Of a stretch of DNA of 6,360 bases, positions 1-6,360 are shown in pieces (position 1 is the stretch's first letter; each line of letters begins with the position of its first letter). The notes beneath the pieces were generated by a model. That model ran no database searches. It saw nothing but the letters and a program-made list of their open reading frames with translations, and was not told where the DNA came from. The DNA comes from a virus. Lineage: Duplodnaviria; Heunggongvirae; Uroviricota; Caudoviricetes. Location of the stretch: positions 1 through 6,360 of IMG/VR virus record IMGVR_UViG_2778261419_000001; one strand, written 5' to 3'. Position numbers and translations under genes: made by a program.

Positions 1-195
1 CGCTTACCGCTCATGGGCACCTCTCTTTAAGCCATCTTAAATGACTCTGAGGTGTCTGTTAAACCCGTGGCGATTCAGTTATTGGTATCTCATTACGCAC
101 CATTGCTAAGAAAAGAAAATGCTCTGATGGCACAATTAGGAAGGAGTTGCAAACTGCAGTAGGATTTATAAACGGTGTAATGTCAGTATTTAAAT

Positions 196-215
196 AAGCG
201 CCAATTAAGGCGCTT
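196..215 (-). terminator. Stem-loop overlapping the stop codon of the 187-aa gene; possible intrinsic terminator
   Basis: Perfect inverted repeat AAGCGCC (196-202) / GGCGCTT (209-215) with 6-nt loop. On the minus-strand transcript the stop codon lies in the loop and the stem is followed by AUUUAAAU, which is U-rich but interrupted. Confidence 0.35.
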
Positions 216-768
216 TAAATGGAACGGGAACCTGTAAAGCGTTAGCAGCTATCTCAACTATTTTCTCGTTTGGAATATTTGCTAATATAAAGCGTTCCCT
301 TTCTTGTAAAATTTTGTTTATAACGTAATACACGCTTAACATGCTGAACAACATTGATTCTTCCTTTGCTTTGCAAGAATAGTTATCCACTTTCCAGTTT
401 TCAGACACATAGTCATATTTTGATTTAATTTGCTTTGATAGTAATAGAACATTTTTTAATGCTATTCGAGTGTCTCGATTGTAGTAAGAGTAAATATTAT
501 CTATGTTCTTCTCTAGAATAATTGGTTCAAACGTTTTCCCTAAAGAAATATACTGAAAATCTTTGGGTTTAAATGTGTGTTCTTTTATGCTTTTGCTAGT
601 GGTTTTGATAGATTTCTCTAGTATTGATAATTCATCCTCTAACTCAGTGAATATGCTTTTTTTTAATGTTTTTATCTTTTCTTTTTCCTTTCTAGACTCA
701 ACGTATGGCGCTAGTATAATACCCAAAAGAAAAGTGGTAAAAGGAATTAAGCTTTTGATAATGTCCAT
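205..768 (-). CDS. Hypothetical membrane-anchored protein, 187 aa: one N-terminal transmembrane helix followed by a Lys/Glu-rich soluble domain; cargo (moron) gene
   Basis: Intact ORF with ATG at 768-766 preceded by AAGGA 4 nt upstream. Residues about 5-23 (IKSLIPFTTFLLGIILAPYV) are hydrophobic, then KEKEKIK and a charged domain. Hand-sampled GC is about 30%, against about 55% in the terminase genes. No family recognised. Confidence 0.6.
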   Translation of the reverse strand: MDIIKSLIPFTTFLLGIILAPYVESRKEKEKIKTLKKSIFTELEDELSILEKSIKTTSKSIKEHTFKPKDFQYISLGKTFEPIILEKNIDNIYSYYNRDTRIALKNVLLLSKQIKSKYDYVSENWKVDNYSCKAKEESMLFSMLSVYYVINKILQERERFILANIPNEKIVEIAANALQVPVPFKAP

Positions 769-807
769 GGTTTCCTTATTTTTTCATATGATTAACGCTA
801 GGAAAAT

Positions 808-836
808 ATGATAATAAAAAACTAACGCGTACGCAA
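808..836 (-). promoter_or_regulatory. Candidate sigma70 promoter for the 187-aa gene
   Basis: On the minus strand: -35 TTGCGT (+ coordinates 836-831), 17-nt spacer, -10 TATCAT (813-808), about 35 nt upstream of the RBS. Found by eye only. Confidence 0.3.
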
Positions 837-913
837 AAATTATTGTATCGTGTTAAGAGTGGTTACTTTGTCACGTGGCTTAAGCCCGCCGTCGAGCGGG
901 TTTCGTCGTTTGA

Positions 914-922
914 GGGGGGGGG
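914..922 (+). repeat. Homopolymeric G9 tract (C9 on the minus strand) immediately 5' of an ATG
   Basis: Directly visible: GAGGGGGGGGG followed by ATG at 923. The tract doubles as the Shine-Dalgarno region and spacer for the 66-aa ORF. Confidence 0.9.
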
Positions 923-1123
923 ATGAATCAGACTGGTCAACCCAGCTATGCGCTTTTCGCCGGGAATGATAGTAGCAATCTCAAAACGTTTGTTCTTGAG
1001 GTTGATTGCTACCGTACTGAAGACGCGCTATTAGCAATGGAGAAAGCCATAAGCGAATTAAAAATCTGTCAGCGTCAGTTCGGCTATGGAAATGATTCTG
1101 GTGTCAGAGCTATTATTCGATAA
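923..1123 (+). CDS. Small hypothetical protein, 66 aa; 3' end overlaps the convergent 182-aa gene by 11 nt
   Basis: ATG at 923 directly follows a GAGG plus G-run that could serve as SD. Amino-acid composition is not low-complexity. No family recognised. It could be spurious. Confidence 0.3.
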   Translation: MNQTGQPSYALFAGNDSSNLKTFVLEVDCYRTEDALLAMEKAISELKICQRQFGYGNDSGVRAIIR

Positions 1124-1661
1124 TTCTTTCACCAATAATAACTGGCAATGGAATGAGCACTTCCCAGAATGGTTGATACCCTTCGTAAATCTGTGTTGTT
1201 TCACCCTTCCAGTAAAGATCCAGCCTCTGAGATACTTCTACTGGGGAGCAGTTCAGATTTAACAAATTCATATCACCTCTATGATAGTTCGACGATGAGC
1301 TGACTTGAAATATTGGGGTGTCAAGTGGGGATTTTGAAAAGCCTCTGAACCAGGCGGTTTCTTTTACAGACTCACATGCAAAAATTGATTGGAAGCGCGA
1401 TGGTTTTTCAGGGAAGTGTGATTTCCTTCGTTCTTCCAGTAGTATTTCTATTATTGCTCCAAATCGTTCGTCTGAGCTGACGAGGTTTATGTGGTAGTTG
1501 AAAAAAAGATTATTTGCATGCCGGGATACACCGTCGGAAAACAATGAGCTCGTATGAGCCTGAAGTGGAACGATTGGGCAGTACGGTTCTGCTAATTCAA
1601 TTTTCATGCCTGACTTCAGTGTGCGCTGCCTGTCAAGTGTATAAAAAAGATTGTTCGCCAT
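1113..1661 (-). CDS. Hypothetical protein, 182 aa; cargo gene between the Q region and the late promoter/lysis genes
   Basis: Intact ORF with ATG at 1661-1659. GAAGGA lies about 10 nt upstream, which is rather long spacing. Hand-sampled GC about 40-47%. No transmembrane segment and no motif I can assign with confidence. Confidence 0.5.
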   Translation of the reverse strand: MANNLFYTLDRQRTLKSGMKIELAEPYCPIVPLQAHTSSLFSDGVSRHANNLFFNYHINLVSSDERFGAIIEILLEERRKSHFPEKPSRFQSIFACESVKETAWFRGFSKSPLDTPIFQVSSSSNYHRGDMNLLNLNCSPVEVSQRLDLYWKGETTQIYEGYQPFWEVLIPLPVIIGERIIE

Positions 1662-1861
1662 ATTAATGCGTTCCTTCTGATATTGGTTATTTCTGTTGAT
1701 TTAACGATATCAGAATAGATAAGTATAGTGAATACAATGCCGTAAAAGCGGCAGCACGGCTTCCGTATCTGATAGCTTGGCTGGATGAAATGGCGTCGCA
1801 GCGCTCATAGTGGCAACGATTAGCGGACCTCGGCATTTGCCTGTTTTTATATTTAAGGCCG

Positions 1862-1893
1862 CTGACATCTGGAATTGTCGGGGATTTTTTATT
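1862..1893 (+). terminator. tR'-like intrinsic terminator (end of a 6S-like late leader) just upstream of the pinholin gene
   Basis: Stem CTGACA (1862-1867) / TGTCGG (1876-1881) with one G-U pair, then GGA TTTTTT ATT (T-run 1885-1890). The GTCGGGGATTTTTTAT arrangement resembles the lambda tR' end as I recall it. The Q-dependent promoter and qut site should lie in 1662-1861 but I could not pin down hexamers. Confidence 0.4.
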
Positions 1894-1928
1894 CTCTCAA
1901 TTTGCACCCGCATCTGCGAGGTGGAGTT

Positions 1929-2144
1929 ATGAAATCCATGGATAAGTTAACAACGGGTGTCGCCTATGGCACCTCAGCAGGTAGTGCCGGTTACTGGTTT
2001 TTACAGCTGCTCGATAAAGTCACGCCCTCACAGTGGGCAGCAATAGGTGTGCTGGGTAGCCTGGTATTTGGCCTGCTGACGTACCTGACAAACCTTTATT
2101 TCAAGATTAAAGAAGATAAGCGCAAGGCTGCGAGAGGTGAATAA
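1929..2144 (+). CDS. essD: Pinholin, phage 21 S21-type, 71 aa, with dual start M1/M4 (antiholin/holin)
   Basis: Translation [71 protein letters not shown] matches the S21/EssD pinholin as I recall it. GAGG lies 7 nt upstream of ATG 1929; a second ATG sits at 1938. Stop overlaps the next start (TAATG). The ORF-track start at 1875 is probably not used. Confidence 0.9.
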
Positions 2145-2641
2145 TGCCTCCATCATTACGAAAAGCAGTTGCTGCTGCTATTGGTGGCGGAGCAATTGCT
2201 ATAGCATCAGTGTTAATCACTGGCCCAAGTGGTGACGATGGCCTGGAAGGTGTCAGCTACATACCATACAAAGATATCGTTGGCGTATGGACTGTATGTC
2301 ACGGACACACCGGAAAAGACATCATGCTCGGTAAAACGTATACCGAAGCAGAATGCAAAGCCCTCCTGAATAAAGACCTTGCCACGGTTGCCAGACAAAT
2401 TAACCCGTACATCAAAGTCGATATACCGGAAACAACGCGCGGCGCTCTTTACTCGTTCGTCTACAACGTGGGTGCTGGCAATTTCAGAACATCGACGCTT
2501 CTTCGCAAAATAAACCAGGGCGATATCAAAGGCGCATGTGACCAGCTACGTCGCTGGATATACGCTGGCGGTAAGCAATGGAAAGGCCTGATGACTCGTC
2601 GTGAGATTGAGCGTGAAGTCTGTTTGTGGGGGCAGCAATGA
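2144..2641 (+). CDS. rrrD: SAR endolysin (T4-lysozyme-fold muramidase, phage 21 R21 / RrrD-like), 165 aa
   Basis: N-terminal Gly/Ala-rich weakly hydrophobic SAR segment ([20 protein letters not shown]). Catalytic spacing E-x8-D-x5-T in [16 protein letters not shown]. Near-identical to RrrD as recalled. RBS GAGG upstream; translationally coupled to the pinholin. Confidence 0.9.
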
Positions 2642-3081
2642 GCAGAGTAACCGCGATTATCTCCGCTCTGATTATCTGCATCATCGTCTGCCTGTTATGG
2701 GCTGTTAATCATTACCGTGATAACGCCATCGCCTACAAAGAGCAGCGCGACAAAGCCGCATCCACTATCGCTGATATGCAGAAGCGTCAACGTGATGTAG
2801 CAGAACTCGACGCCAGATACACAAAGGAGCTTGCTGATGCTAACGCGATTATCGAAAGTCTTCGTGCTGATGTTTCTGCTGGGCGTAAGTGGCTGCGCGT
2901 CAAAGCTGTCTGTCCAGACATGCATAAAATCACCGCCGCCTCCGGCGTGGATGATGGCACCAGCCCCAGACTTACTGACACCGCTCAACGGGATTATTTC
3001 ACCCTTAGAAAGCGGATTGAAACCAGTGATAAAATGATCCGAGGCTTGCAGCAATACATTCGCACGCAGTGTGTAAGATGA
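2638..3081 (+). CDS. rz: Rz inner-membrane spanin (i-spanin), 147 aa
   Basis: ATG 2638 overlaps the endolysin stop (ATGA). N-terminal TM helix ([19 protein letters not shown]), then a charged coiled-coil-like periplasmic domain. Ends resemble lambda Rz. The ORF-track start at 2626 is GTG; ATG 2638 is preferred. Confidence 0.85.
2837..3037 (+). CDS. rz1: Rz1 outer-membrane lipoprotein spanin (o-spanin), embedded in the +1 frame of Rz, about 66 aa
   Basis: AAGGAG (2824-2829) lies 7 nt before ATG 2837. Signal peptide with lipobox LLGVSGC, then a Pro-rich region ([14 protein letters not shown]...TPLNGIISP) matching lambda Rz1. The ORF-track start at 2831 is TTG. Confidence 0.8.
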
Positions 3082-3461
3082 GCAATCTTTGCTAATTAGC
3101 CATGAAATAGATAAATATCAGGCCAACGATGATTAGTGCCAGGCATCCTAATTGGTCAGAATGGCTGGCATTTGATCGTCTTGCTCTTCTTGCAGTTGAT
3201 TGGACAGCCCTCTGTCCTCGACTTCCTCTTGGCATTCCTCTCATTTATTCTCTCTCAACATTGATATTGAACTGACAGATGATAATTATTTCATGAAAGT
3301 GGTATCTCGTTGATTTGATTACGCTACATAGTCGCCGGATTTTCGCATTTATCGGCATCGGGCGGTGCAAAATTGGCATAATCGAAACGTAGAGTTTTTG
3401 GCTGACAACAGCATTAGCGGTCACCCGGAGAGTGTTGTGAACATGTTAATTACATGACGCT

Positions 3462-3782
3462 TTAGATGCATCGACATTTGATGATGCTTGTCAGACCTGT
3501 CATTTTCTTTGCTTCATTTTCAACATTGAGGAAGTTGGTTGAGCATATTTTTTGATAATCTCCAGTTGTGAATCCTGTTTTATCGATCTTGCGTTTCAAG
3601 GGATTAATCGTTTTGCAAGATGCTCTATGGATTCTGGTAAAGCGTTCGTCAGATTTATTACCTTTACCTCTGGTTCGCTTCAATGCATTGACAACATATC
3701 CGTCTGGATTATCGCCAAGCCAATTACGATAGTCTGATTCACTCTCAGTCTGAAGGTCACTTCTGAATACCTTTATGGACAT
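3462..3782 (-). CDS. Hypothetical protein, about 106 aa, basic, with a C-x22-C-x24-C-x-C pattern; cargo gene at the bor-equivalent position upstream of cos
   Basis: Intact minus-strand ORF. The second in-frame ATG (3782-3780) has AGGAG 7 nt upstream, so it is preferred over the track start at 3800. About 40% GC. No family recognised. Confidence 0.5.
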   Translation of the reverse strand: MSIKVFRSDLQTESESDYRNWLGDNPDGYVVNALKRTRGKGNKSDERFTRIHRASCKTINPLKRKIDKTGFTTGDYQKICSTNFLNVENEAKKMTGLTSIIKCRCI

Positions 3783-3901
3783 GAAGATACTCCTGTGCAT
3801 TTATGGTACGAAGAAATAGCAAAAGTATTTTTACCGTAAATTGCGAATCTACAAAAGCAAAACAATGCGTAATATCAGAGTGAATATTCTGCCTTTAATG
3901 T

Positions 3902-4096
3902 GGGTCCTTCTGATGACCTGAGCTCTCACGGGGCGGAAGGCGCGCGGGTTTTCGCTATTTATGACAATTTTCCGGTTTAAGGCGTTTCCGTTCTTCTTCG
4001 CCGTAACCTAATGTTTTTATTTAAAACACCCCCTGAAAAGAAAGGAAACGACAGGTGCTGAAAACGGGCTTTTTGGCCTCTGTCGTTTCCTTTCTC
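3902..4096. other. cos DNA-packaging site: cosQ-like GGGTCCT (3902-3908), cosN (12-mer 3931-3942), cosB with R3 (3983-4000), I1 A/T-rich putative IHF region (about 4005-4031), R2 (4035-4054, inverted) and R1 (4080-4096)
   Basis: Collinear with the lambda left end as recalled: CGCGGGTTTTCGCTATTTATGA follows the 12-mer; R3 CGTTTCCGTTCTTCTTCG; R2/R1 form an inverted repeat GAAAGGAAACGACAG / CTGTCGTTTCCTTTC; sits immediately upstream of Nu1. Confidence 0.8.
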
Positions 4097-4119
4097 TGTT
4101 TTTGTCCGTGGAATGAACA

Positions 4120-4665
4120 ATGGAAGTCAACAAAAAGCAGCTGGCTGACATTTTCGGTGCGAGTATCCGTACCATTCAGAACTGGCAGGAACAGGGAATG
4201 CCCGTTCTGCGAGGCGGTGGCAAGGGTAATGAGGTGCTTTATGACTCTGCCGCCGTTATAAGATGGTATGCCGAAAGGGATGCTGAAATTGAGAACGAAA
4301 AGCTGCGCCGGGAAGTTGAAGAACTGCGGCAGGCCAGCGAGACAGATCTCCAGCCAGGGACTATTGAGTACGAACGCCATCGACTTACGCGTGCGCAGGC
4401 CGACGCACAGGAGCTGAAAAATGCCAGAGACTCCGCTGAAGTGGTGGAAACCGCATTCTGTACTTTCGTGCTGTCGCGGATCGCAGGTGAAATTGCCAGT
4501 ATTCTCGACGGGATCCCCCTGTCGGTGCAGCGGCGTTTTCCGGAACTGGAAAACCGACATGTTGATTTCCTGAAACGGGATATCATCAAAGCCATGAACA
4601 AAGCAGCCGCGCTGGATGAACTGATACCGGGGTTGCTGAGTGAATATATCGAACAGTCAGGTTAA
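4120..4665 (+). CDS. nu1: Terminase small subunit (lambda gpNu1 homolog), 181 aa
   Basis: Translation MEVNKKQLADIFGASIRTIQNWQEQGMPVLRGGGKGNEVLYDSAAV... is essentially lambda Nu1 (winged-HTH N-terminus that binds the cosB R elements). It overlaps the A start by 26 nt, as in lambda. Confidence 0.92.
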   Translation: MEVNKKQLADIFGASIRTIQNWQEQGMPVLRGGGKGNEVLYDSAAVIRWYAERDAEIENEKLRREVEELRQASETDLQPGTIEYERHRLTRAQADAQELKNARDSAEVVETAFCTFVLSRIAGEIASILDGIPLSVQRRFPELENRHVDFLKRDIIKAMNKAAALDELIPGLLSEYIEQSG

Positions 4666-6322
4666 CAGGCTGCGGCATTTTGTCCGCGCCGGGCTTCGCT
4701 CACTGTTCAGGCCGGAGCCACAGACCGCCGTTGAATGGGCGGATGCCAATTACTATCTCCCAAAAGAATCCGCATACCAGGAAGGGCGCTGGGAAACACT
4801 GCCCTTTCAGCGGGCCATCATGAATGCGATGGGCAGCGACTACATCCGTGAGGTGAATGTGGTGAAGTCTGCCCGTGTCGGTTATTCCAAAATGCTGCTG
4901 GGTGTTTATGCCTACTTTATAGAGCATAAGCAGCGCAACACCCTTATCTGGTTGCCGACGGATGGTGATGCCGAGAACTTTATGAAAACCCACGTTGAGC
5001 CGACCATCCGCGATATTCCGTCGCTGCTGGCGCTGGCTCCGTGGTATGGCAAAAAGCACCGGGATAACACGCTCACCATGAAGCGTTTTTCCAATGGTCG
5101 TGGCTTCTGGTGCCTGGGCGGTAAAGCGGCAAAAAACTACCGTGAAAAGTCGGTGGATGTGGCGGGTTATGATGAACTTGCTGCCTTTGATGAGGATATT
5201 GAACAGGAAGGCTCTCCGACGTTCCTTGGCGACAAACGTATTGAAGGCTCGGTCTGGCCAAAGTCCATCCGTGGCTCCACGCCAAAAGTGAGAGGCACCT
5301 GCCAGATTGAGCGTGCAGCCAGTGAATCCCCGCATTTTATGCGTTTTCATGTTGCCTGCCCGCACTGCGGGGAGGAGCAGTATCTTAAATTTGGCGACAA
5401 AGAGACGCCGTTTGGCCTCAAATGGACGCCGGATGACCCCTCCAGCGTGTTTTATCTCTGCGAGCATAATGCCTGCGTCATCCGCCAGCAGGAGCTGGAC
5501 TTTACTGATGCCCGTTATATCTGCGAAAAGACCGGGATCTGGACCCGTGATGGCATTCTCTGGTTTTCGTCATCCGGTGAAGAGATTGAGCCGCCGGACA
5601 GTGTGACCTTTCACATCTGGACGGCGTACAGCCCGTTCACCACCTGGGTGCAGATTGTCAAAGACTGGATGAAAACAAAAGGGGATACGGGAAAACGTAA
5701 AACCTTCGTGAACACCACGCTCGGTGAGACGTGGGAAGCGAAAATCGGCGAACGTCCGGATGCTGAAGTGATGGCAGAGCGGAAAGAGCATTATTCAGCG
5801 CCCGTTCCTGACCGTGTGGCTTACCTGACCGCCGGTATCGACTCCCAGCTGGACCGCTACGAAATGCGCGTATGGGGATGGGGGCCGGGTGAGGAAAGCT
5901 GGCTGATTGACCGGCAGATTATTATGGGCCGCCACGACGATGAACAGACGCTGCTGCGTGTGGATGAGGCCATCAATAAAACCTATACCCGCCGGAATGG
6001 TGCAGAAATGTCGATATCCCGTATCTGCTGGGATACTGGCGGGATTGACCCGACCATTGTGTATGAACGCTCGAAAAAACATGGGCTGTTCCGGGTGATC
6101 CCCATTAAAGGGGCATCCGTCTACGGAAAGCCGGTGGCCAGCATGCCACGTAAGCGAAACAAAAACGGGGTTTACCTTACCGAAATCGGTACGGATACCG
6201 CGAAAGAGCAGATTTATAACCGCTTCACACTGACGCCGGAAGGGGATGAACCGCTTCCCGGTGCCGTTCACTTCCCGAATAACCCGGATATCCAACAGCG
6301 TATGGAAATATCATTCACCTGA
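4640..6322 (+). CDS. A: Terminase large subunit (lambda gpA homolog), 560-aa ORF; lambda-like to about residue 551, then a divergent 9-codon tail and stop; probably a C-terminally truncated pseudogene
   Basis: GTG start at 4640. N-terminal 550 aa match lambda gpA (641 aa) as recalled. From about nt 6294 the sequence departs (PNNPDIQQRMEISFT-stop here, versus PNNPDIFDLTEAQQ... in lambda), with in-frame TGA at 6320-6322. Confidence 0.8.
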   Translation: MNISNSQVNRLRHFVRAGLRSLFRPEPQTAVEWADANYYLPKESAYQEGRWETLPFQRAIMNAMGSDYIREVNVVKSARVGYSKMLLGVYAYFIEHKQRNTLIWLPTDGDAENFMKTHVEPTIRDIPSLLALAPWYGKKHRDNTLTMKRFSNGRGFWCLGGKAAKNYREKSVDVAGYDELAAFDEDIEQEGSPTFLGDKRIEGSVWPKSIRGSTPKVRGTCQIERAASESPHFMRFHVACPHCGEEQYLKFGDKETPFGLKWTPDDPSSVFYLCEHNACVIRQQELDFTDARYICEKTGIWTRDGILWFSSSGEEIEPPDSVTFHIWTAYSPFTTWVQIVKDWMKTKGDTGKRKTFVNTTLGETWEAKIGERPDAEVMAERKEHYSAPVPDRVAYLTAGIDSQLDRYEMRVWGWGPGEESWLIDRQIIMGRHDDEQTLLRVDEAINKTYTRRNGAEMSISRICWDTGGIDPTIVYERSKKHGLFRVIPIKGASVYGKPVASMPRKRNKNGVYLTEIGTDTAKEQIYNRFTLTPEGDEPLPGAVHFPNNPDIQQRMEISFT

Positions 6323-6360
6323 AAGGGATGACAGCCGTTGGCGAAGGTGAGTTACTCATC

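Follow-up and report, generated by a model that had tools for sequence, protein, structure and literature searches.

The described system closest in layout to the locus studied here is TaiEcA/AtiEcA of phage phi80, a prophage defence gene placed antisense in the Q-dependent late operon: taiEcA provides defence, and the small late-sense gene atiEcA was shown experimentally to be a counter-defence gene that protects the phage's own lytic cycle (PMC11364771). The closest described protein is BC2332 of Bacillus cereus (PDB 2AUA; Pfam PF10386, or DUF2441), which has no known function or partner. Here we analyse a DUF2441 gene from a lambdoid prophage, contained in a 6,360-nucleotide (nt) stretch of phage DNA (IMG/VR record IMGVR_UViG_2778261419_000001, positions 1 to 6,360), the whole of which is called the window below and corresponds to the complete NCBI contig NOSD01000093.1 of GCA_002521925.1. 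Three open reading frames (ORFs) lie there between the antiterminator gene Q and the holin gene, with the coordinates, strands and sizes given in the initial annotation: one of 187 amino acids (aa) at 205-768 (minus strand), one of 66 aa at 923-1123 (plus strand) and the DUF2441 gene, of 182 aa, at 1113-1661 (minus strand). Unlike BC2332, the phage subfamily of DUF2441 has a convergent partner, the 66-aa ORF, and a fixed site beside the lysis genes, and in lambdoid phages this cassette has the same geometry as that of phi80. The reading we favour, though tentatively, is that the interval holds two independently acquired moron cassettes, a putative membrane exclusion or abortive-infection gene in a first slot (A), and a putative ADP-ribosyltransferase (ART) effector with its neutraliser in a second one (B).

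Probable late regulatory region and cargo of the Q-to-holin interval

Between the 187-aa gene and the 66-aa ORF, an alignment of prophages with differing cargo (alignment A3) contains a conserved box of ~53 nt (822-874, plus strand; CTAACGCGTACGCAAAAATTATTGTATCGTGTTAAGAGTGGTTACTTTGTCAC); aligned as CTAACGCGTACGCAAAAA…TGTTAAGAGTGGTTACTTTG.CAC, it is strongly conserved whatever the neighbouring cargo. The box is followed by an intrinsic terminator (882-911, plus strand; 8-bp stem 882-889/896-903 and T-rich tail, fold dG -14.5 kcal/mol), and this hairpin is kept in all aligned loci, with compensating differences. By DNA comparison, positions 816-911 are homologous to the segment separating cargo from holin in other prophages with a ~89% identical Q gene. 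Box and terminator together were found in 264 phage records, among which are those of 434, SfII and Stx phages, and the order in annotated records is constant: Q, minus-strand cargo, box, first late genes. Phage 434 has nmpC (minus strand), the box and an S21-type holin gene, Q being outside the stretch compared; SfII has Q, two minus-strand genes, the box and S; Stx2a_1447 has Q, two minus-strand genes, the box, a small ORF, a methylase gene, tRNAs and stx2. Because of this constant order, and because stx genes are co-transcribed with late genes (PMC8065619), box and hairpin probably correspond to the pR' promoter, Q-utilisation site and tR' terminator of a phage-21-type late promoter region. 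A region of that type comprises a PF06530 Q gene and, behind it, pR' with a Q-binding element, a sigma-dependent pause element and tR'. Candidate pR' hexamers were given by a promoter scan just upstream (783-815, plus strand): TTCATA-18-TATGAT at 783-812, with 9 of 12 matches, and an overlapping GATAAT at 810-815. Transcription from this promoter would start at ~819-822, that is, at the 5' edge of the box.

With the late element at 822-911, only the 187-aa gene would be flanked by Q on one side and the late promoter on the other (slot A), and the 66-aa and 182-aa genes would lie behind tR', within the late transcription unit (slot B). The initial annotation had placed all three ORFs between Q and the late promoter, which therefore holds for the 187-aa gene and fails for the pair, found downstream of the conserved element. 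We regard the description of the interval as two slots, A from Q to pR' and B from tR' to the holin gene, split at ~783-911, as plausible but still tentative.

The three ORFs had also been taken for a single island, and this part of the initial annotation has to be given up, since the 187-aa gene and the 66-aa/182-aa pair are found independently of each other. Loci L037-L040 carry slot B at 94-100% identity together with different slot A genes, and loci L012, L013 and L032-L035 carry homologues of the 187-aa protein (43-72% identity) in slot A, without DUF2441. Judged from this gene content, the two slots are separable and were acquired independently. Such separability counts against a rival reading, in which a single three-gene island precedes a late promoter situated just upstream of the holin gene (~1700-1730). 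A 9-of-12 match to sigma-70 hexamers does exist there on the plus strand (TTAACG-17-TATAGT, 1701-1729), with a terminator-like hairpin downstream, at 1862-1881. However, the match lies opposite the conserved promoter element of the DUF2441 gene, its TATAGT is not conserved (TGTAGT in L039, other differences elsewhere), and the element standing at the Q-proximal edge of the late genes in the 264 phages is the one at 822-911. We therefore hold a single island to be very unlikely.

Other parts of the first description of the interval stand: it is non-backbone, horizontally acquired cargo in the Q-to-S gap, and comparison of related prophages, with a ~89% identical Q gene and other minus-strand cargo at that place, agrees with a variable slot. 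The cargo is indeed poorer in GC than the terminase genes: the 187-aa gene has 30.9%, DUF2441 41.7% and the 66-aa ORF 42.8%, as against 52.7% in Nu1 and 54.1% in gpA. On the left, positions 1-197 (plus strand) encode the 3' end of a Q gene of the Q21/PF06530 family, as read from the frame +3 translation, with its stop codon at 195-197; on longer contigs (L001-L003), gene calls give a full-length Q of 114 aa with PF06530, the family to which Q of phage 21 belongs (bioRxiv 10.1101/651190). On the right, the phage-21-type lysis cassette (1929-3081, plus strand) consists of backbone genes for a P21-type holin (PF04971, E 2e-35), a lysozyme (PF00959) and Rz (PF03245), and is followed by the packaging genes Nu1 and gpA. 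Morons, by definition expressed from the prophage, are extra genes set among backbone genes with a promoter and a terminator of their own; here the insertion, the atypical composition and candidate promoters and terminators can be recognised at the sequence level.

Each of the three ORFs matches a PHROG family of unknown function (E 3e-105, 2e-40 and 2e-58), and the ratio of non-synonymous to synonymous substitutions (dN/dS) relative to diverged homologues is 0.03-0.3 for the 66-aa ORF, ~0.1 for the 182-aa gene and 0.15 for the 187-aa gene. The three ORFs are under purifying selection by this measure, and are not chance ORFs. The exact proteins are present on ~300 contigs of Escherichia assemblies and metagenomes (all locus counts in this work include redundant contigs). 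Neither module was found by megablast, with the whole island or with each module, in 5,426 complete RefSeq E. coli genomes, where matches occurred only at the holin edge and at Q. Among GenBank phages, megablast with positions 1-2000 of the window matched the holin edge only, and tblastn with the 187-aa and 66-aa proteins gave no match. Rfam and tRNA scans found nothing relevant, and scanning the ORF proteins against NCBIfam gave no match.

The DUF2441 protein and its convergent partner

The orphan status first given to these ORFs does not hold for slot B, where the 182-aa protein belongs to Pfam DUF2441 and has an ART fold, and the 66-aa ORF is its conserved convergent partner. PADLOC gave no match for any of the proteins. 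The 182-aa protein (slot B gene 2; 1113-1661, minus strand) matches PF10386 with 26.7 bits for a gathering cut-off of 25 (E 6.2e-06). This domain is carried by all 21 homologues, and a broad profile of the family matches PDB 2AUA (BC2332) at E 2.4e-12. DUF2441 is assigned to the ART clan of Pfam (PMC7955679), SCOP places a 'BC2332-like' family within the ADP-ribosylation superfamily d.166.1 (PMC3000352), and ProFunc matched the active-site geometry of BC2332 to that of diphtheria toxin (PMC3024214). The 182-aa protein has the split beta-sheet that characterises the ART fold. In the literature retrieved with 'DUF2441' or 'BC2332', we found only ART-clan listings, a structural-genomics example and one RNA sequencing (RNA-seq) table, the latter listing the Salmonella DUF2441 gene STM14_RS06850, which may or may not be of the phage subfamily, as differentially expressed (PMC9867438); this would be the sole hint of transcription in a repressed prophage.

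Residues E76, R79, P87, R89, F94, I117, D130, L134, Y150, W151 and E167 are invariant in 16 very diverse members, a set including Gordonia and Streptococcus phage proteins and one cyanobacterium. E167 is aligned with a Glu of BC2332, and, in an alignment made by eye, the His at the end of strand 1 of BC2332 (…FYAYH…) appears as Asp10 in the phage proteins. The spacing R89-41-D130-37-E167 resembles that of an R-S-E triad, with neither a canonical STS nor an H-G motif. ADP-ribosyl transfer is likely to be the activity of DUF2441, as far as can be predicted from fold and conserved residues, and R89, D130 and E167 are the residues to mutate in order to test it.

Two observations concern the integrity of the gene. 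In some assemblies (L001 4884-5378, L002 4677-5171) its start is called at Met19; the resulting 164 aa lack the N-terminal strand bearing the near-invariant Asp10, and the conserved start gives 182 aa. In Erwinia tracheiphila (L029 5001-6771), DUF2441 is split by an insertion of ~1.2 kb containing a transposase-like ORF, and the downstream partner is intact.

The partner, slot B gene 1 (923-1123, plus strand; phrog_10826), is the first ORF past tR' and lies in late sense; it has no Pfam domain. It is convergent with the DUF2441 gene, the two 3' ends overlapping by 11 nt. An intact convergent small ORF was present at the 3' end of DUF2441 in 64 of the 72 DUF2441 loci fetched, at a spacing of -11 to +20 nt, and when the search was made from the partner side, DUF2441 was adjacent in 20 loci out of 22. 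The partners form four sequence groups, which track the clades of DUF2441. Profile-profile comparison with hhalign connects groups A, B and C at 94.6% and 94.9% probability (E ~5e-8), and the link of group D is suggestive only (E 6e-4), these E-values being those of single pairwise comparisons. A strand-helix-strand pattern can be read from the alignment in all partner groups. The start codon of the 66-aa ORF adjoins a strong Shine-Dalgarno sequence and a run of G (912-922, plus strand; GAGGGGGGGGG). The G-run (914-922) counts 9 G in 11 of the loci fetched; 7 further loci, near-identical in all else, have 10 G, and there an upstream start comes in frame and ORFs of 93-101 aa are called. This variation could mean that the distance from ribosome-binding site to start codon is prone to slippage, or could come from errors in sequencing a homopolymer.

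Tight linkage of two genes that diversify together, one of them with a fold common to the toxins DarT, ParT/RES and MbcT, might suggest that the prophage is kept stable by addiction to a toxin-antitoxin module, with DUF2441 as a constitutively toxic ART and the small protein as antitoxin. Yet type II toxin-antitoxin pairs form co-transcribed bicistronic operons, and no toxin occurs there without its antitoxin; here the genes are convergent, without an operon, and DUF2441 loci without partner exist. In Cedecea-type loci (L018-L020, L042, L043) DUF2441 is intact and the partner is reduced to a C-terminal remnant (…RFGYINDCGVEGFIF), and in L056 an intact DUF2441 has no partner at all. DUF2441 is therefore not lethal without its partner. 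Conversely, the partner is found without DUF2441 in L091 and L107, so that it appears worth keeping alone. Moreover, the putative antitoxin of this phage lies behind a terminator and would be Q-dependent, hence scarce in lysogens. The occurrence of each gene alone seems to fit defence and counter-defence better than an obligatory toxin-antitoxin pair, and we consider an addiction module unlikely.

The lambdoid prophages compared have Q genes of three kinds and several types of holin, and in all of them Q is followed by (box), the partner in late sense, DUF2441 in antisense and the holin gene. In the window this results in the order box/tR', 66-aa ORF (plus strand), DUF2441 (minus strand), holin (plus strand). 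Such an order would fit a noncontiguous operon, where a gene on the opposite strand sits among co-transcribed ones; the 66-aa ORF would then be co-transcribed with the lysis genes. The partner being in late sense was entertained as a universal rule and rejected, the cassette being inverted in KP12-like phages. In Klebsiella phage KP12 itself (L108, OM835952.1), the group B partner ORF (3572-3802, minus strand) is unannotated in GenBank. In Streptococcus phage Javan642, DUF2441 is alone in being antisense within an early operon, and a convergent ORF of 59 aa overlaps it; this ORF was rejected as a homologue of the 66-aa protein, as hhalign finds no similarity. Since orientation and backbone differ across lambdoid phages, KP12-like phages and Javan642, the invariant feature is the convergent pair itself.

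Directly upstream of DUF2441, an element TCTGATATCGTTAAATC is conserved in loci whose proteins are only 43-66% identical. It probably represents an extended -10 promoter (1704-1732, minus strand), with TTCACT (1732-1727) as -35, and TG (1712-1711) followed by TATCGT (1709-1704) as extended -10. A 7-bp inverted repeat, CTGATAT…ATATCAG (1677-1713, minus strand), brackets this promoter and the 5' leader, and may be an operator or a leader structure; partial repeats TGATAT…ATATCA occur in L039, L057 and L058. Between the cassette and the holin gene there is a second terminator-like hairpin with a U-run (1859-1890, plus strand), which is weak (dG -10.0, z -1.3); other loci have at that position a different late-sense hairpin and T-run.

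These signals and the orientation of DUF2441 bear on two further explanations. The first is a lysogenic-conversion cargo that would act in the environment of the host, either as a toxin or virulence factor in the manner of stx, or as an ART of small molecules like Arr. DUF2441 has neither signal peptide nor hydrophobic segment (maximum hydropathy 1.06), and, running against the late operon, it would lack the coupling of expression to lysis by which Stx is set free. In addition, having a dedicated partner inside the cell is rather a trait of conflict systems, and the family also occurs in phages of non-pathogens, including Gordonia and Cedecea. Of all the explanations considered, this is the least probable. 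The second is that DUF2441 could be a counter-defence or host-takeover enzyme, comparable to AcrF11 or to Alt, ModA and ModB of T4, which would modify a component of host immunity or transcription and be regulated by the small protein. However, its antisense position with a conserved promoter of its own in lambdoid loci, and its antisense position in Javan642, correspond to the layout of a moron expressed in the lysogen and not to that of a lytic gene; and the partner, as read from its sequence, has a near-neutral charge and no helix-turn-helix motif, unlike Aca-type regulators. We rate this explanation as improbable to the same degree as the addiction module.

The membrane-anchored protein of slot A and other loci

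The slot A gene (205-768, minus strand; phrog_31367) encodes a protein with an N-terminal membrane anchor and a helical bundle. Residues 3-21 are its only hydrophobic segment (best 19-residue hydropathy window) and are followed by a Lys/Arg-rich stretch, so that by the positive-inside rule the bundle of ~165 residues probably faces the cytoplasm. The AlphaFold2 model (predicted local distance difference test score, pLDDT, 85) has a continuous helix from residue 2 to residue 66, then four helices. The membrane anchor of the initial annotation is thereby borne out, and so is its moron layout, with a candidate promoter at 836-808 and a terminator-like hairpin at 196-215. This promoter, read by eye (808-836, minus strand), consists of TTGCGT (836-831), a 17-nt spacer and TATCAT (813-808); its -35 overlaps the conserved box, and with 3 of 6 matches in the -35 it falls below the threshold of the promoter scan. 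The hairpin (196-215) is GC-rich and is a candidate bidirectional terminator common to the convergent Q and 187-aa genes: its folding energy is -12.7 kcal/mol on the minus strand and -11.6 kcal/mol on the plus strand (z -4.5 and -3.9), and none of 200 shuffled sequences was as stable.

An exhaustive profile search recovered 57 representatives of the 187-aa family among 1.84 billion proteins. In every context recovered, the gene is separated from the Q stop codon by ~20 nt at most and from the box by ~50 nt, and it travels alone, always beside a Q gene of the Q21 family. Scanning 40 distant members against Pfam and PADLOC gave no meaningful match: the stray PADLOC hits involved single members only, at E 5e-4 to 8e-3, each with a different unrelated model. 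Searching PDB sequences with the family profile gave no match either. Elsewhere slot A contains nmpC, the PADLOC candidate system PDC-M53 (SfII), a metallo-beta-lactamase (MBL)-fold protein with a RefSeq 'anti-phage protein' (E. coli E8), or a pair formed by a nucleoid-associated protein and a hypothetical protein. From its architecture and this neighbourhood, the most likely role of the 187-aa protein would be exclusion or abortive infection at the membrane, exerted from the prophage.

In a sister prophage, the 187-aa gene is replaced in slot A by the gene of a 294-aa protein (L037 5893-6777, plus strand), with an N-terminal transmembrane segment, a long coiled coil and, in its C-terminal part, a potassium-channel-like TTTFGD motif; it has no PADLOC match.

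A third antisense ORF of low GC content (38.9%) lies between Rz and Nu1 (3462-3800, minus strand). It is 112 aa long (called as 106 aa), has no match in Pfam, PHROG, NCBIfam or PADLOC, and is 100% conserved in L001, L002 and L037. For none of the three cargo proteins nor for this ORF did the hidden Markov models of PADLOC-DB v2.0.0 give a match at E <= 1. Tai-type systems are usually found 'upstream of the packaging module' (PMC11364771), which is the slot of the 112-aa ORF. The same slot holds iss in L010. In phage lambda it is occupied by bor. Outside the window, the same prophage has between the replication gene P and a Bro-N gene (L001 9835-11730) the gene of a 631-643-aa NACHT/NB-ARC protein (STAND NTPase), likely an antiviral gene of NLR type; since this gene comes besides the cargo cassettes, the prophage carries several candidate conflict genes.

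Proposed mechanism and comparison with known systems

In the mechanism we propose, the slot A protein would be expressed from the prophage and act at the membrane against superinfecting phages, by exclusion or abortive infection. DUF2441, being antisense to the late operon and having its own conserved extended -10 promoter, would be made in the lysogen from this promoter, and would act as an NAD+-dependent effector in phage-phage or phage-host conflict. The 66-aa partner would be its cognate neutraliser, made mainly once Q lets RNA polymerase through tR'. Upon induction, Q-dependent late transcription would then supply the neutraliser and at the same time collide with transcription of DUF2441, which would protect the prophage's own lytic cycle.

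Several points weigh against this proposal. As regards the effector, a canonical triad (H-Y-E or R-S-E, on strands 1, 2 and 5) could not be recognised, so that the activity of DUF2441 is unproven, and its best fold match outside the family is AcrF11 (PDB 6KYF), an anti-CRISPR ART, which would suit counter-defence equally well. As regards its timing, in KP12-like phages of Klebsiella and other Enterobacterales the cassette lies immediately upstream of the holin gene but inverted, DUF2441 running with the holin gene and the partner antisense, so that a late partner and a lysogen effector cannot be a universal rule. The pR' assignment rests on conserved position, with a start site deduced and not mapped, and the box itself (822-874) has no good sigma-70 hexamers. 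For the 187-aa protein, the model matches generic helical bundles only, so that its architecture alone is informative. Finally, PADLOC, NCBIfam and the literature gave no evidence linking any of the three proteins to defence. In the literature we came upon no account, whether from experiment or computation, of the DUF2441-partner cassette or the 187-aa family, and the DefensePredictor supplements contain neither the accessions nor DUF2441.

A bolder formulation is that DUF2441 and its partner make up a previously undescribed two-gene system of phage conflict. The ART effector, an enzyme using NAD+, would block superinfecting phages in the lysogen, and the late, Q-dependent neutraliser would give self-immunity and, when alone (L091, L107), counter-defence. 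The system would be found just ahead of the lysis genes in two or more unrelated backbones of temperate phages of Enterobacterales, with a similar pair, containing an unrelated small ORF, in the early region of a Streptococcus phage. We find this formulation doubtful as a whole, though less so than any of the rival explanations above. If its self-immunity part is true, a 'noncontiguous operon' would here answer prophage autoimmunity for a second time, with unrelated genes.

Cargo slots of prophages are one main reservoir of undiscovered anti-phage and counter-defence genes, and DUF2441, structurally solved but functionally blank, gains here several handles: the ART fold, a cognate partner and a fixed genomic niche. 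The lambdoid Q-to-S gap would moreover combine two regulatory logics, a Q-independent one ahead of pR', and another behind tR', where late transcription crosses antisense genes. This distinction between slots matters for predicting when a cargo gene is on or off.

Slot B encodes proteins unrelated to TaiEcA/AtiEcA. Tai acts by blocking the assembly of tails, and its gene is found upstream of those for packaging, whereas the putative effector of slot B has an ART fold and its gene converges with that of the partner, the 3' ends overlapping. The ART toxin systems DarTG, CmdTAC, ParST/RES-Xre and MbcTA form operons of co-directional genes, whose antitoxins are macrodomain, Xre or SecB-dependent proteins; slot B differs from them by the absence of a PADLOC match and by a convergently encoded strand-helix-strand partner of 66 aa. 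In particular, the macrodomain antitoxin of DarTG, and the CmdA and SecB-like chaperone of CmdTAC, have no counterpart here, where there is no PADLOC hit and no third gene. AcrF11 (PDB 6KYF) has 7% identity with DUF2441, which indicates a shared fold alone, and nothing points to a CRISPR target. As to slot A, SieA of P22 (PMC10883804), Sie2009 of lactococcal phages and gp15 of HK97 are reportedly membrane-anchored exclusion proteins of prophages; the 187-aa protein is, like them, a small, single-gene, membrane-anchored moron, a likeness of architecture only, with no similarity in sequence or specific fold. With the classical cargo of the Q-S gap, both slots share low GC content, transcription signals of their own and the opposite strand, and differ in gene content. 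The nmpC gene of DLP12/434 lies between Q and the box, as slot A does, and stx of Stx phages lies downstream of the box, as slot B does; the division into a part ahead of pR' and a part behind tR' is seen here directly, within one prophage.

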